A DNA stretch of 64,000 bases, taken from the NCBI GenBank assembly GCA_963700285.1, contig CAVOXA010000009.1:224001-288000 (forward strand). Reading direction: 5' to 3'. Source of the DNA: an uncultured Chloroflexia bacterium. Lineage in GTDB: Bacteria; Chloroflexota; Anaerolineae; JAAYZQ01. Positions 8,600-15,416 of the stretch are shown piece by piece (the first letter of the stretch is position 1; every line of letters starts with the position of its first letter). Under the pieces are notes generated by a model that made no database searches, had not been told where the DNA came from, and was given only the letters and a program-made list of their open reading frames with translations. A program made the position numbers and the translations under genes.

Positions 8600-8683
8600 C
8601 TTTTGAATATAGAAACTGTGAGGATACCCGTATCCGTCTGGGCAGAATTCCGTTAGAGTGATTAGTTGATAACCATTGCTTCC

Positions 8684-9244
8684 ATGCCTGCGGACGAGAA
8701 GGCTCTGATCCAGTCAGCTCAGCAGGGCGACGCCGAGGCCTGCACTGTGCTGTACAATCGTCATTATGATGCTGTCTATCGCTACTGCTACTACCGGGTA
8801 GGCGATGTACACCTGGCTCAGGATCTCACAAGCGAGGTCTTTGTACGCATGGTGGACAAGCTGGACACATTCAGAGTACGTGGGCGGCCACTGCTGGCCT
8901 GGCTGTACACCATCGCCCGCAATCTGATCACTGACATGCAACGCCGGCAGGGAAAGGCGGCCCTCATGCCGCTGAACGAAGCATCTGAGTTCCACATGGG
9001 TGACGAGGCAGATCTCACCAGAGACGTGGAACGGAAGCTCGAGGCCGACTGTCTGGCAGCCGCTCTCCGGCATCTGACCGAGGAACAACGCCAGGTGATA
9101 CTGCTCAAGTTCATGGAAGACCTGGATAATGGCCAGGTTGCCCGCCTGCTGGGCAAGACCGAAGGGGCCGTAAAGTCGTTGCAACACCGGGCGCTAGGAG
9201 CATTGCGCCGAGCCGTCACGAAAGAACGCTGTTATGAAGCATGA
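8684..9244 (+). CDS. ECF RNA polymerase sigma-70 factor
   Basis: AQDLTSEVF, AWLYTIARN, LTEEQRQVILLKF, VARLLGKTEGAVKSLQHRA; alternative TTG start at 8666. Confidence 0.93.
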   Translation: MPADEKALIQSAQQGDAEACTVLYNRHYDAVYRYCYYRVGDVHLAQDLTSEVFVRMVDKLDTFRVRGRPLLAWLYTIARNLITDMQRRQGKAALMPLNEASEFHMGDEADLTRDVERKLEADCLAAALRHLTEEQRQVILLKFMEDLDNGQVARLLGKTEGAVKSLQHRALGALRRAVTKERCYEA

Positions 9245-10616
9245 CCTTGATACCGCACTGGACCAATGTCTGGTCAATCTGCGCGGTGGGATGGACATCG
9301 AGAGTTGTCTGGCACAGTACCCAGAGGATGCCCACAAGCTGCGGCCCTTGCTGCAGTTGGTGACGCAGGTAGGCGGGGTGATCATCCCGGCTTCGTCCTC
9401 TGCAGCACGCGCCGCGGGGCAGGAGCAGATGCTGACCGCGCTGGCCAGGAGGCGCGAGCGGGAAGGCGCGACCGATCGGTTCGTCCGTGCCATCAAACGG
9501 ATGGCAATTGGGCTTGTCCCAGGAAGACTCTGGGGCCCGGCGCCAGGTTGGAGCCTGACAGCCGCCGCACTGCTGGTCATCGTGCTGGTTGTGGCTGGCG
9601 GAGTGACTGTCAGGGCCTCAGCAGAAAGTCTGCCGGGTGGAACTCTTTACCCACTGAAACTGGCCAGCCAAAGGTTACAAGTGGCGCTCACCTTCGATGA
9701 GGCGAGGCAGCAAGGACTGGAGGTACAGTTTGAAGCCCAAAGACGACTGGATGTGCAGGCGGTGCTCAAGGGTGGCCAGCAGGCGTCCGTCGAATTCCAG
9801 GGAGTGCTCCAGCGCATGGAGGGAGACATCTGGGTGGTGGGCGGCCTATCAGTCACTTTGCAGGACTCGACCGAGATCTTGGGGCAGCCTCAGCGGGGGG
9901 CCCTGGTCCGGGTGCGGGGCAGCCTGCCCGGCAACGGTAGCCTGCTGGCCACCTGGTTGCACGTGGAGCCAGGCATAACTCAGGAGCCCAGCCAGACACC
10001 ATCGGCAACGGCAACAGAAACGGTGGTTCCGTCTGAGACACCAGAGCCAACCGACACGCCGCAACCGAGCGACACACCACAACCAACAGAAACTGCTGAG
10101 CCAATCGAGACGCCTGAGCCAAGGAGCTCCCCAGAGCCAAAGGAGACGGAAGGGCCGGACGAGACTCCCGAAGCAGGCGAAACCAGTGAGTCCGAGGCGA
10201 CGTCAGAACCGGTCGAGACACCAGAAGCTAAGGGCACACCGGAGCCCGGGGACGAAGCGGAACCCACCGAAGCACCAGAGCCCGAGGATACTCTAGAACC
10301 CGGAGGCGAACCGGACCCGACCGACGCGCCAGAGCCCGAGGATACTCCGGAGCCCGAACACAAACCGAAGCCAACCGATGCGCCAGAGCCCGAGCATACT
10401 CCGGAGTCCGAACACAAACCGAAACCAACCGATGTGCCAGAGCCCGAGCATACTCCGGAGCCCGAACACAAACCGAAAGCAACCGATGCGCCAGAGCCCG
10501 AGCATACTCCAGAGCATGAGGACGAAGCGGAACCGACCCACGCACCAGAGTCGGACGAGGCGCCAGAGGCTGGCAAAGCAGGTCAGGGTGAGCTAGCCAT
10601 ACCGCCTGACGATTAG
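9234..10616 (+). CDS. Putative anti-sigma factor (DUF5667/DUF5666-like) with Pro/Glu/Thr-rich repeat tail
   Basis: Overlaps the sigma stop; LDQCL...IESCLAQYPE.A..LRPLL N-domain, one TM, SLPG..LYPLK motif, beta-rich domain, repetitive tail. Confidence 0.8.
   Translation: MKHDLDTALDQCLVNLRGGMDIESCLAQYPEDAHKLRPLLQLVTQVGGVIIPASSSAARAAGQEQMLTALARRREREGATDRFVRAIKRMAIGLVPGRLWGPAPGWSLTAAALLVIVLVVAGGVTVRASAESLPGGTLYPLKLASQRLQVALTFDEARQQGLEVQFEAQRRLDVQAVLKGGQQASVEFQGVLQRMEGDIWVVGGLSVTLQDSTEILGQPQRGALVRVRGSLPGNGSLLATWLHVEPGITQEPSQTPSATATETVVPSETPEPTDTPQPSDTPQPTETAEPIETPEPRSSPEPKETEGPDETPEAGETSESEATSEPVETPEAKGTPEPGDEAEPTEAPEPEDTLEPGGEPDPTDAPEPEDTPEPEHKPKPTDAPEPEHTPESEHKPKPTDVPEPEHTPEPEHKPKATDAPEPEHTPEHEDEAEPTHAPESDEAPEAGKAGQGELAIPPDD
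10260..10550 (+). repeat. 54-bp (18-aa) intragenic tandem repeat PTDAPEPEHTPEPEHKPK, about 5 copies
   Basis: Unit ccgaccgacgcgccagagcccgaggatactccggagcccgaacacaaaccgaag and variants, read directly. Confidence 0.85.
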
Positions 10617-10719: not shown

Positions 10720-11694
10720 ATGGATCTTCGCGCGACCAGCTTTGAGGGGCGTCTTGCCCATAACCACGTCAGCCGCAGGCAGTTTCTCAAGTTCTGCGGA
10801 CTGATGACGGCCACGCTGGCCCTGCCGGCCCACTATACCGGCCGCGTTGCCAAGGCCCTGATGACAGCACCACGCCCGCCCGTGGTCTGGCTCGAGTTCC
10901 AGGACTGCACCGGCGACACCGAATCGTTCCTGCGGGCCAGCCAGCCGGGGGTGGACGAGCTGCTGCTGGACATTCTTTCCCTGGACTATCACGAGACACT
11001 CATGGCACCGGCCGGTGCCATGAGCGAGAAATCGCTGCAGGACACGATGAGCCAACTTTCCAGGCCAGTACCTCTGCGTCGTGGAGGGTTCGATCCCCAC
11101 CGCCGCCGGCGGCATCCACTGCATGATCCGCGGCCGGACGGCGCTCAGCATCGCCCAGGAGGTATGCAACAACGCCCTGGCAACCCTCGCCGTGGGCACC
11201 TGTGCCTGGGATGGCGGCCTGGCCGCCGCCGCCGCCCAACCCCACCGGGGCGGTTGGCGTCAGGGATGCCGTGCCCGGGCTGCAGCCCGCTCATCAACCT
11301 GCCCGGCTGCCCGGCCAATGTCGTCAACATCACGGCGACGATCATCCACTTATCTGACCTTCAACGAGTGGCCGCAGACCGACAGTTCGGGGCGGCCCCA
11401 CTTTGCCTATGGCGAGGAGATCCACGACGAGTGCGAACGGCACGACCACTATGAGCACGAACGGTTCGTGCTCGGCCTGGGGCGACCAGGGACACCAGCA
11501 AGGCTGGTGTCTGTTCAAGATGGGCTGCAAAGGACCGGAAACCCACCACAATTGCCCCTCAGTCAAATGGAATGACGGTACCTGCTGGCCCATCGAGGCC
11601 GGGCACGGCTGTCGTGGGCTGCGCCGAAGCGGGCTTCTGGGATCGGATGACACCCTTCTACGTGCCGCTGAACGACGATGAGCATGATGACTAG
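10720..11694 (+). CDS. Group 1 [NiFe]-hydrogenase small subunit, Tat-exported; several frameshifts
   Basis: SRRQFLKFC Tat signal, [79 protein letters not shown]; ends ...[12 protein letters not shown] with no C-terminal TM anchor. Confidence 0.9.
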
Positions 11695-11798: not shown

Positions 11799-13608
11799 AT
11801 GTCCGATCCAACGCCCAATGGGGCGAATAAGCTTCATCTGCCGCTCATACAGGGCCATGATACCTCGGGGAGAGGCGTGCCGCCGGCCTCACAGAGGATT
11901 GCCATCGATCCCATCACGCGGATCGAGGGACACCTGCGCCTCGAGGTCCAGATCGAGAACGGCCAGGTCACCGACGCCTGGAGCGCGGGCATGATGTTCC
12001 GGGGCATCGAGCTGCTGCTGCCGGGGCGGGATCCCCGGGATGCCTGGGTCTTTGCCCAGCGCATCTGCGGCGTCTGAACGACGGTTCACGCCATCTGCTC
12101 CGTGCGAGCAGTTGAAAACGCCCTGGGCATCACCATTCCCGACAATGCCCGCATCCTGCGCAACCTGCTTGAAGGCGCCCAGTTCGTCCAGGACCACGTG
12201 ATTCACTTTTACCATCTCCACGCCCTGGACTGGGTGGACATCGTCAGCGCCCTGTCCGCCGATCCGGCGGCCACCAGCCACCTGGCCCGGTCCATCTCGG
12301 ACTGGCCCAACTCCAGCCCGGCCTACTTTCAGGGGGTGCGGGATCGCCTGCAGACCTTTGTGGACAGCGGCCAACTGGGCCTTTTCGCCAACGCCTACTG
12401 GGGCCATCCCGCGCTACAAGCTGCCGCCCGAGGCCAATCTCCTGGCCGTGGCCCACTACCTGGAGGCGCTGGACTGGCAGCGCGAGATCATCAAGATGCA
12501 TGCCATTCTGGGCGGCAAGAACCCCCATCCGCAGACCTACCTGGTGGGCGGCATGGCCATTCCGGTCGACCCGAACAGCCAGCATGGCATCAATCCGGAG
12601 CGGATCGCCCAGCTGAAGCATCTGGCCGCCCAGGCTCTGGAGTTTGTGCAGAAGGTCTATCTCCCCGACCTGCTGCTGATCGCCTCCTACTATACGGAAT
12701 GGGCCGGACCTGGGCGAGGGAGTGGGCAACTATCTGGCCTATGGCGACTTTCCCGCCGACACTAGCGGCAATCCGGCTGCCCTGTGGCTGCCACAGGGCG
12801 TCGTCTGGAACAAGGACCTCGGCAGCACCGCCAGAAGCCCTGGACCACAACCAGATCCGGGAATATGTCACCCACTCCTGGTACAACTATGCGGAGGGAG
12901 ACGGCGCTGGCCAAGCATCCGTGGGATGGAGAGACGGACTGGAACTATACCGGGCCGCAGCCACCCTTCGACCAACTCGATACGGACGGCAAGTACTCCT
13001 GGCTCAAGGCGCCGCGCTACAACGGCCAGCCCATGGAGGTCGGACCGCTGGCGCGCATGGTGGTGGCCTATGCCGCCGGCCACAGCCGCGTGCGAGAGCT
13101 CGTTCGACTCAGGTGCTCGACCAGCTGGGCGTTGGACCTGAGGCCCTCTTCTCGACGCTGGGCCGGGTAGCGGCGCGGGGCATCGAAACGCTGGTCATCG
13201 CCGAAAAGCTGCAGGGCTGGATCAGCGAACTGGAAACCAACATGAACAGCGGAAACCTGGCCATCCACAACGGGGCGCAAGTGGGATCCCAGCACCTGGC
13301 CGGCCCAGGCCATGGGCTGGGGCATCACCGAAGCGCCGCGCGGTGCGCTGGGCCACTGGGTGCGCATCGAGAACGGGACGATCGCCAACTACCAGTGCGT
13401 CGTGCCCAGCACCTGGAACGGCTCGCCCCGCGACGCCCTCGGCCAGCGCGGCCCCTGGGAGAAGGCGCTCATCGGCACGCCGGTGGCCGATCCGGAAAAG
13501 CCGGTCGAGGTGCTGCGCACCATCCATTCCTTCGATCCCTGCATGGCCTGCGCCGTGCACATCGTCGATCTAGATGGTCGCGAGCTGACAAGGATCCAGA
13601 TCGTATGA
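11799..13608 (+). CDS. Group 1 [NiFe]-hydrogenase large subunit with in-frame TGA (putative Sec) in motif L1; several frameshifts
   Basis: [93 protein letters not shown] plus cleavable C-terminal extension; GAAGGAG RBS. Confidence 0.92.
12075..12114 (+). promoter_or_regulatory. In-frame UGA plus putative bacterial SECIS element
   Basis: TGA at 12075-12077; stem CTGCTC (12095-12100)/GAGCAG (12106-12111) with loop CGUGC, extendable past a U-U mismatch. Confidence 0.65.
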
Positions 13609-13631: not shown

Positions 13632-13895
13632 ATGTGCCTGGCCATTCCAGCACAGATCAGGTCTATTGACGGCTTTGAAGCACAAGTGGAGATCGGGGGG
13701 GTGAGCCGCACCATCAGCGTGGGGCTCACCCCTGATGCCTCGGTCGGCGATTACGTGTACGTCCACACCGGCTTTGCCATCAGTGTGGTTGACGAGGCTG
13801 AAGCCCAAGAGAGCCTGCAGTTGCTGCGGGAACTCGCCGATACCTACCCGGTGGAAGAGTTGTTCCTGTCTACCGGCGACCTCGCCCCGCCGTAG
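13632..13895 (+). CDS. hypC: Hydrogenase maturation chaperone HypC/HybG
   Basis: MCLAIPA N-terminus; GDYVYVHTGFAI. Confidence 0.95.
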   Translation: MCLAIPAQIRSIDGFEAQVEIGGVSRTISVGLTPDASVGDYVYVHTGFAISVVDEAEAQESLQLLRELADTYPVEELFLSTGDLAPP

Positions 13896-14066: not shown

Positions 14067-15416
14067 ATGGATGTTGTTAGGTCGAAATGGCTGATAATCA
14101 GCGTCTTGTTCCTGGCTGGCCTCTGTGCCAGCATCGTCGCACTCAGCGCCTGGACCGAACCGGCTGCCGCCGCGCCCGAACTGGGTGCGACGGGGCCCGG
14201 TCTTGAAACCGGCTCTCCGGCTGCTGGCAATTATGTCGTTCTAACTTGGAACGATCTGGGCATGCACTGTTACAACCCTGACTTTCAGGACATCGGCGTC
14301 CTGCCTCCCTGGAATACCCTTTGGGCGCAGGTTGTCCGGGTGGGGAACCCGCCCCAGATCGTCAGCAGCGGCATCAAGGTGACGTTTGAGTTTCCCGACA
14401 ACACCTACTCGGTTGGCAAGTCCGACTTCTGGGACCAGAGCCCCTACCGGAGCGGCCAAAACGCTGAACTGCTCTTCAATCTGCCCCAGCCCTTGCCGGC
14501 AAACGTAGGCTTGACCGGTACTGGCTTGGCAGGTGAGATGGAGCTGCGCGGAGATCACTTTGTGGCTGAAGGAATCCCGTTGACAGAGTACCGGGACAGT
14601 GCCCCCTCAACTCCCTACCCCTACCAGTTGGCGACGGTCATCGCCCGTGACGCCAGCACCGGCCAGGAACTGGCCCGTACCGTGACCGTCGCGCCAGTCT
14701 CGACAGAGATGCACTGCGACAACTGTCACTATGACAATGGCCCTGGCAATGAGGATTTCGCCACAGGGGTAGTGGAGCAGAACATCCTGTCCCAGCACGA
14801 TGAAGAGAACATGGACAAGTACCCAACCGGTCACCAGGGAGCATTGATGAACCGGCGGCCCGTTCTCTGCGCCGAATGCCACGCCTCGAACGCGCTGCAA
14901 GCCCCCGGTGCGCCGGGCGTCCCGAACCTGTCGAAGGCCATCCACGACAAGCACGAGGGCAAGGTCCCCGACACGCTGGCGGGCTGCTACAACTGCCATC
15001 CAGGCCCCCAGACCGAGTGCCTGCGCGGCGTCATGTCGGACCAATATGACATGGATTGCATGGACTGCCACGGCGGCATGGATGCCGTCTCCAAGAACCC
15101 CAATCCCTGGCTCAACGAACCGCGCTGCGACAACGCAGCCTGCCACGGCAGCGCCTACCAGCAGGACCAGCCCCTGTACCGGATGTCCAAGGAGCACGGC
15201 GGCGTCTATTGCGAGGGTTGTCACGACAGCACGCATGCCATCGCCCCCAGCGCCGAACCGAATGACGCCATCAAGTTCATCGCCTGGCAGGGGCACGCGG
15301 GCACGCTGGACACCTGCACCGTCTGCCACGCTTCTCAGCCTTCGGGTGGGGGTCCGCACGGCTCCGAGCCGTCACAGCGTTGGTACCTCTACCTGCCGCT
15401 CGTCGTGCGGAACTAG
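14067..15416 (+). CDS. Exported multiheme c-type cytochrome (6 CxxCH + 1 CX4CH)
   Basis: Signal peptide; WNDLGMHC N-domain; CDNCH, CAECH, CYNCH, CMDCH, CDNAACH, CEGCH, CTVCH; C-terminal YLYLPLVVRN. Confidence 0.9.
   Translation: MDVVRSKWLIISVLFLAGLCASIVALSAWTEPAAAAPELGATGPGLETGSPAAGNYVVLTWNDLGMHCYNPDFQDIGVLPPWNTLWAQVVRVGNPPQIVSSGIKVTFEFPDNTYSVGKSDFWDQSPYRSGQNAELLFNLPQPLPANVGLTGTGLAGEMELRGDHFVAEGIPLTEYRDSAPSTPYPYQLATVIARDASTGQELARTVTVAPVSTEMHCDNCHYDNGPGNEDFATGVVEQNILSQHDEENMDKYPTGHQGALMNRRPVLCAECHASNALQAPGAPGVPNLSKAIHDKHEGKVPDTLAGCYNCHPGPQTECLRGVMSDQYDMDCMDCHGGMDAVSKNPNPWLNEPRCDNAACHGSAYQQDQPLYRMSKEHGGVYCEGCHDSTHAIAPSAEPNDAIKFIAWQGHAGTLDTCTVCHASQPSGGGPHGSEPSQRWYLYLPLVVRN

Follow-up and report, generated by a model that had tools for sequence, protein, structure and literature searches.

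The locus described here raises the question of whether a TGA codon interrupting a hydrogenase gene is a stop, an error or a selenocysteine (Sec) codon, and what a selenium atom would do at that place. The window, i.e., the whole stretch of DNA analysed (64,000 nucleotides; G000:C9:224001-288000), belongs to an uncultured Chloroflexia bacterium whose assembly (G000) comprises 7.05 Mb in 22 contigs and is 89% complete. The original prediction read the TGA as Sec at the bridging cysteine of a [NiFeSe]-hydrogenase of a non-canonical kind, followed by a SECIS-like hairpin. The features of the locus are collected in Table 1.

Table 1. Features of the hydrogenase locus, with positions counted from the first letter of the window.
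Feature	Position	Strand	Remarks
ECF sigma factor and anti-sigma-like gene	8666..10616	+	Upstream of the small subunit gene
Small subunit gene	10720..11694	+	Tat signal; CTGD; six single-base insertions in the assembly
Group 1 [NiFe]-hydrogenase large subunit gene	11799..13608	+	Seven single-base insertions in the assembly
N-terminal extension motif KLHLPLIQG	11829..11855	+	Resembles the xLPL(I/V) ending many proteins of the source genome
TGA in frame, on the second Cys of RxCGxC (N-terminal)	12075..12077	+	Hyd-1 C79 position; putative selenocysteine
SECIS-like hairpin, 6-bp stem, CGUGC loop	12095..12111	+	+19 pairs with +33; T-A/A-T covariation
C-terminal L2 motif DPCMACAVH	13534..13560	+	Both ligands Cys (TGC); C-terminal tail follows
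hypC maturation chaperone	13632..13895	+	TIGR00074, 86.6 bits (cut-off 48)
Multihaem c-type cytochrome, candidate electron acceptor	14067..15416	+	Six CxxCH

Judging by its alignments, the interrupted gene is the large subunit of a [NiFe]-hydrogenase of group 1, adjoined by a small subunit that bears a Tat signal. Its orthologue from a genome of the same genus (G001) matched solved group 1 enzymes over the full length (residues 2–554), most closely 3myr_B (705 bits, E 1e-210) and with E 8e-181 for Escherichia coli Hyd-1 (3uqy_L), vs. at most 110 bits for group 3 entries. None of the NCBIfam equivalog cut-offs was reached by this orthologue, and a HysA-type identity was rejected, given 411 bits on the HysA model against a cut-off of 780 and no DPUxxC. 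The L1 motif RxCGxC, the L2 motif DPCxxCxxH and the equivalents of E28, D118 and R509 are all present. In the 3uqy_L alignment of the G001 orthologue, the TGA corresponds to C79 of Hyd-1, a bridging ligand between Ni and Fe, as PMC13582414 also states for the N-terminal CXXU position; the other three metal ligands are cysteines, so only the second L1 cysteine is TGA. Residues are numbered after PMC8020662, where the glutamate of EGH is number 28. Only one group 1 large subunit was found in the source genome by tblastn, and two subunits of group 3 found there carry Cys at the L1 site. The named close relatives of the gene are mostly Anaerolineae/Chloroflexota, and the host probably belongs to that class as well.

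Several claims of the original prediction concern the reading frame itself, and they hold. The TGA falls on the second Cys of L1 (RICGVC), on which the reading frame and the Hyd-1 alignment agree; the same frame continues with hydrogenase sequence, as seen from the open downstream frames of relatives; and the C-terminal motif is plain Cys (DPCMAC, coded by TGC). Gene callers were expected to split such a gene, and 20 of the 120 best database hits indeed lack the L1 motif, most of these fragments beginning at a GTG within the hairpin.

Independent homologues with TGA at the same codon, for which the prediction had proposed to search, are numerous. At least 116 matches in GTDB follow the pattern [QE]RICG[V/I]-TGA-xxxH, and among the 116 listed, 105 are hydrogenase large-subunit loci, assigned by upstream motifs to groups 1/3 (at least 85) and group 4 (at least 20); these counts are lower bounds because the pattern demands exactly these residues. 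Eleven of the 116 were discarded as chance matches, such as the stop before cysN in Acinetobacter. The record titles of the carriers name Anaerolineae, Desulfobacterales/Desulfobulbia, Nitrospirota, Desulforudis, Syntrophomonas, Coriobacteriia, Rokubacteria and Myxococcales. Within the host order, TGA occurs in 6 of 23 genomes at eight loci, six of which read open to DPCMAC, the two frameshifted ones being the window's gene and L026.

Some individual carriers are worth describing. Loci L051 and L086 belong to the complete genome of Desulforudis sp. Tu-874; both encode one and the same CxxU large subunit of a group 1a-like type (QRICGVUPISH, C-terminal DPCIAC). CxxU was also found in a group 3-like subunit of a Myxococcales MAG (L063), in Coriobacteriia subunits with unusual insertions (L038 and L144) and in a subunit from Thermodesulfovibrionales whose C-terminal motif is DFCIAC (L049).

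Is the TGA a mistake of sequencing, or does it mark a dead gene hit by a nonsense mutation? A single base suffices to turn TGC into TGA. However, the same TGA stands in more than 100 loci of many phyla, and the alternatives to it are telling. From the host class, 401 genomes were sampled evenly and searched with an L1 pattern open to any TRN codon; a hand count gave 53 L1 sites, 17 with TGA and 36 with TGC/TGT, and none (0/53) with TAA, TAG, TGG or TAY. Likewise, among the best 80 metagenome relatives of a Sec-type query, 79 hold the site, with 38 TGA, 41 Cys and nothing else. Errors do not explain this pattern, since TGG is equally close to TGC and yet was never seen in the 53 and 79 sites. 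The codon is also spanned by three contigs that two studies assembled from short reads of close relatives, and no other letter is listed in them at 12075–12077 or in the stem.

The original prediction also warned of many indel errors in this gene, and rightly so. Compared with G001, the large subunit gene carries seven single-base insertions (12414, 12715, 12826, 12912, 13106, 13110 and 13278) and the small subunit gene six. All 13 indels of the operon are +1 insertions, with no frame-breaking deletions in the conserved parts. Such a load, 13 insertions in about 2.9 kb, is denser than in several neighbouring genes (none in the sigma factor, one in the cytochrome), and to that extent it favours an error or a dead gene. 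Against this, dN/dS relative to G001 is 0.11 for the small and 0.12 for the large subunit, like that of the neighbouring genes (0.05–0.17), and the short-read contigs of relatives from four public runs omit one base at or near most of the insertions (as judged from 12 of 19 contig rows; e.g., 11052, 11233, 11470, 11612, 12413, 12826, 13106, 13111 and 13277). Moreover, selD and selB are split by frameshifts in the same assembly too (G000:C9:56688-57628 and G000:C10:2126954-2128870). No source reads were found in public runs, none of which matched half of the sequence words, and no RNA run was among the listed matches. Most likely, the 13 insertions are long-read artefacts, and the idea of an error or a dead gene behind the TGA is scarcely credible. 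Even a real breakage of the window's copy would leave the recoding untouched. A seemingly new stop in the large subunit gene of the window may stem from the alignment at the 13106–13110 insertions or at the gene end.

If the TGA encodes Sec, the host should be able to make and insert it. The search of the source genome for selA, selB, selC and selD, which the original prediction had named as a check, found all four over their cut-offs: selC with 67.5 bits on RF01852 (cut-off 47), a UCA anticodon and a G discriminator, selA with 579 bits, selB with 288 bits and selD with 196 bits. The selD gene has an in-frame TGA of its own (TSAAG*ASK). Among the 17 TGA hosts of the class, selA was found in 16 and tRNA-Sec in 14, and all 17 have selA or selC; the three without tRNA-Sec are assemblies of 620–930 contigs. 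For TGA hosts of other groups, reached from the named loci, selA was present in 40 of 42. Within the class, however, the co-occurrence of selA does not discriminate, because 28 of the 32 Cys-only hosts have it as well. Two further searches were set aside: ARAGORN at a lowered threshold gave long tRNA-Cys/Sec calls that were spurious, and a loose motif scan of the source genome for other TGA selenoproteins returned noise only.

The same machinery bears on another reading of the codon, namely that UGA is decoded in a SECIS-dependent manner as Cys by tRNA-ReC (SelC*), leaving an ordinary [NiFe]-hydrogenase. Takano et al. 2026 (PMC13582414) name Cys decoding as a limit of sequence-only work and report tRNA-ReC in about 17% of their Sec-type genomes. 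In the source genome, on the other hand, a single match exceeds the tRNA-Sec cut-off (UCA, G discriminator), alongside one 72-nt tRNA-Cys, and general tRNA searches of this 89% complete genome revealed no second long tRNA with a U discriminator. Across the 17 TGA hosts, UCA tRNAs with G before the CCA site make up the 14 best matches, and the three weaker second matches are Leu/Ser tRNAs. We regard decoding as Cys as very unlikely.

In bacteria, Sec insertion proceeds by binding of SelB-GTP-Sec-tRNA to a hairpin downstream of UGA. The hairpin of the original prediction, CTGCTC (12095–12100) and GAGCAG (12106–12111) enclosing CGTGC (12101–12105), is also the predicted fold; its loop begins 23 nt past the TGA and has G then U at positions 2–3, as had been described. 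The accompanying claim that the hairpin is built of unusual codons holds for the window's gene: they are rare in its N-terminal part (CGA 1 of 14 Arg, GCA 1 of 21 Ala and GTT 2 of 14 Val codons; GC3 0.82), but less so in the same-genus orthologue (CGA 4/31, GCA 7/54). Folding energy was rejected as proof of a SECIS element, being non-significant in a context of 50–100 nt (z of +0.27 for 50 nt, −0.84 for 60 nt and −0.27 for 100 nt) and giving z −2.39 (6 of 200 shuffles) only for a hand-cut 29 nt; Sec and Cys sites did not differ in it either (p 0.42). It is the comparative evidence, not the folding energy, by which the hairpin is more than chance.

For this comparison, 223 sites were merged into 200 distinct ones, their sequences being related, and folded with RNAfold under a criterion of our own (a loop of 3–8 nt that starts 18–28 nt after the codon and has G at position 1 or 2). 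Within the TxxH type, a G-loop hairpin follows the codon in 111 of 112 Sec vs. 19 of 52 Cys sites, and all six pairs in the register of the window's hairpin form in 74 of 112 vs. none of 52. The loop was found in 7 of 11 P-type Sec sites and in 1 of 20 group 4 sites, where the hairpin sits elsewhere (PMC13582414). The clearest evidence is the covariation found in the hairpins of homologues: positions +19/+33 read T-A at 33 Sec sites and A-T at another 41, codon +7 being TGC (Cys) with GCA at +11 in the former and AGC (Ser) with GCT in the latter. On a tree for which the 13 residues concerned were masked, the two positions change together in 7 of 7 independent pairs (p 0.016, 53 rows). When the Sec state itself was compared with stem pairing over 11 independent pairs, 8.3 went the same way, 0.8 the opposite way and 1.9 showed no difference (median p 0.02, range 0.004–0.07).

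Overall, the Sec machinery, the conservation of TGA and of no other non-Cys codon, the covarying hairpin and the intact frames downstream in relatives support the original reading, and we hold it highly probable that this is a real recoded codon, a conserved in-frame UGA read as Sec. The position of the residue, in turn, comes from the alignment, by which a Ni-Se-Fe bridge is predicted to replace one Ni-S-Fe bridge. Where the C-terminal motif could be read in frame, it is C/C in 78 of 78 Sec-type sites (65 more were unreadable), and reading by eye the C-terminal motifs of the 49 hydrogenase-bearing genomes of the host class gave no TGA in 118. The canopy Asp118, present in all 78 of the 78 Sec rows, and Arg509 do not differ from those of the Cys enzymes, so nothing else at the active site seems to be remodelled.

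In the classical [NiFeSe]-hydrogenases (HysA of Desulfovibrio vulgaris, the Desulfomicrobium baculatum enzyme 1cc1, VhuU and FrhA), a Sec ligand of Ni is likewise encoded by UGA with a SECIS element. However, according to Evans et al. 2021 (PMC8020662), their Sec occupies the terminal C576 position (UxxC), which that paper calls special, and Ser stands for the canopy Asp118; in the window's enzyme, C576 is Cys and the canopy Asp is kept. The solved group 1 subunits 3myr_B and 3uqy_L show Cys at each of the four aligned ligand positions, and the window's enzyme differs further in its CxxD-type, anchor-less small subunit.

A bridging placement of Sec has already been predicted in print, and the window's gene is therefore not new in kind. 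Takano et al. 2026 (PMC13582414) found N-terminal Sec in 47 sequences of group 4, of which 27 have the CXXU form, and excluded groups 1–3. The window's enzyme shares with these group 4 CXXU proteins the Sec codon at the second N-terminal Cys only, the Cys C-terminal motif, the sel genes of the host, the hairpin G at loop position 1 or 2 and the mosaic spread of Sec and Cys on the tree. It differs in belonging to group 1, in its Tat small subunit and in having its hairpin on the S-V-R-A codons, in a sequence other than that of the group 4 hairpin. For groups 1 and 3, Baltazar 2011 is credited in PMC13582414 with two and one N-terminal CXXU sequences, respectively, and with predicting Sec to bridge Ni and Fe. 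Where Evans et al. 2021 mention Baltazar's natural bridging cases, they give them as C579, not C79, which conflicts with the reading of Takano et al. In contrast to those two group 1 cases, the clade of the window's gene contains dozens of carriers.

Reviews place the Sec of selenium hydrogenases at one terminal ligand of Ni. A selenoproteome review from 2026 (PMC13188914), whose table covers 119 families, has hydrogenase large subunits as UxxC only, and the main text of the BSepDB paper lacks the whole word "hydrogenase", although its database and supplements may list such sequences; passages of PMC9961374 and a term search of PMC13326102 contributed nothing further. The literature searched, subscription papers and supplements aside, contained no group 1 CXXU survey and no characterised natural CXXU enzyme. 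The original statement that no characterised example is known thus stands for natural enzymes and fails for an engineered one, Hyd-1 C79U (PMC8020662).

The latter variant was obtained by UAG suppression in the O2-tolerant group 1d enzyme of E. coli, and it has the same residue replaced by Sec, in a protein that did not evolve around selenium. Evans et al. 2021 (PMC8020662) describe it as the most active of four Sec variants, with 13% of the native activity, a lower KM and a higher activation enthalpy; under prolonged O2 it performed worse, and it was almost inactive at 10% O2. By analogy, our best guess is that the natural Sec form would have a lower KM for H2 and no gain in O2 tolerance, a guess limited by its basis in one engineered O2-tolerant enzyme.

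The genes around the TGA suggest how such an enzyme might work. The small subunit has a Tat signal (TIGR01409, 24.8 bits vs. a cut-off of 16.7), matches TIGR00391 over its first 113 aa and has an acidic C-terminal tail with neither a membrane helix nor an anchor; in its CTGD motif, Asp replaces the second Cys of the proximal cluster (CxxD). We propose that SelB and tRNA-Sec would bind the G-loop hairpin 23 nt downstream and place Sec at codon 93, after which HypC and the other Hyp proteins would fill the metal site, where Se is predicted to form a bridge between Ni and Fe. Through its Tat signal, the small subunit would then take the dimer out of the cytoplasm, giving a soluble extracytoplasmic H2-uptake enzyme, whose electrons would probably pass to the neighbouring multihaem cytochrome. 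Without selenium, translation would presumably halt after about 92 codons, so that the genome's only group 1 hydrogenase would be selenium-dependent.

The same sigma/anti-sigma-like pair precedes the small subunit in loci L258, L260 and L261 too, which suggests a dedicated regulator. The anti-sigma-like gene matches DUF5667/DUF5666 and has a long tail of P/E/T repeats. As for the small-subunit motif, 17 of the 30 Sec-type loci in which it could be located have Asp at the proximal-cluster position, as do 5 of 27 such loci of the Cys type. As a separate matter, the cytochrome ends in YLYLPLVVRN (15387–15416), with a [FYH]LP[LIV][IVL]-like motif as in the N-terminal extension of the large subunit. 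This motif is present in the last 13 residues of 43 of the 15044 long frames of the source genome, vs. 11 in a control stretch, and in 57 of the 75 large-subunit homologues that have the N-terminal extension. It may be an envelope-sorting or anchoring signal, placed here at the N-terminus of an anchor-less hydrogenase.

The distribution of the two forms was followed on a FastTree tree of 249 rows, i.e., 149 DNA-checked sequences (from the 200 sites, leaving out short, frameshifted and duplicate ones) and 100 database proteins; the window's gene entered by its N-terminal part only. Among the DNA-checked rows, at least 15 changes between Sec and Cys are required, vs. a minimum of 34 and a mean of 41.8 in 200 shuffles; as the tree is unrooted for this purpose, gain is indistinguishable from loss. 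Many full-length Cys proteins near the window's gene keep the ICSVRAV signature, and one cluster at 90% identity unites three full-length Cys proteins with two 499-aa members that start at VRAVE, where a TGA gene is usually split. Such protein records suggest recent switches between Sec and Cys. At locus L084, Sec-type and Cys-type large subunits lie together and are sister rows in the tree, a pair that resembles the duplicated group 4e pair of PMC13582414.

The alternation of Sec and Cys forms among close relatives makes it most likely that the swap tunes rather than changes catalysis. It is also compatible with another view of function, in which Sec is inserted but is near-neutral for catalysis, the site drifts between Cys and Sec where the Sec machinery is kept anyway, and any benefit is regulatory, synthesis being tied to the selenium supply. 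This view shares the Sec recoding with ours and concerns function alone. The 15 or more changes among 149 rows, the mixed 90%-identity cluster, the unchanged canopy Asp and Arg509 and the engineered C79U, slower and less O2-tolerant than native Hyd-1 according to PMC8020662, all agree with it. On the other hand, a TGA has the cost of a SECIS element, with five codons constrained and Cys/Ser forced at +7, and it nevertheless persists in entire clades of the Anaerolineae, the Desulfobacterota and the Nitrospirota; lineages of group 1, 1a-like, 3 and 4 all have it at this position, with no C-terminal TGA among the 118 motifs of the class. We favour fine tuning in anaerobes and treat near-neutral drift as a serious, though less probable, rival.

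What is new here is the breadth of the bridging form in the host class, the tree-corrected covariation of its hairpin and the frequent switching between Sec and Cys. It is tempting to suppose, though we do so tentatively and would not yet lean on it, that the CxxU enzymes form a large hidden class of natural selenium hydrogenases. They would be the main selenium form in the host class (17 of 53 L1 vs. none of 118 C-terminal sites, the latter from 49 hydrogenase-bearing genomes), with many gains and losses in groups 1, 3 and 4 and a bridge of distinct chemistry, offering, e.g., a higher H2 affinity or an easier loading of Fe(CN)2CO in anoxic, low-H2 habitats. Because the genes are stored as fragments that lack L1, surveys relying on motifs would underestimate H2 uptake in Anaerolineae, Desulfobacterota and Nitrospirota. 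A widespread bridging-Se form would also represent a second natural test of the role of selenium at the NiFe site, in which near-identical Sec/Cys pairs permit comparison and Desulforudis sp. Tu-874 might serve as an experimental source.
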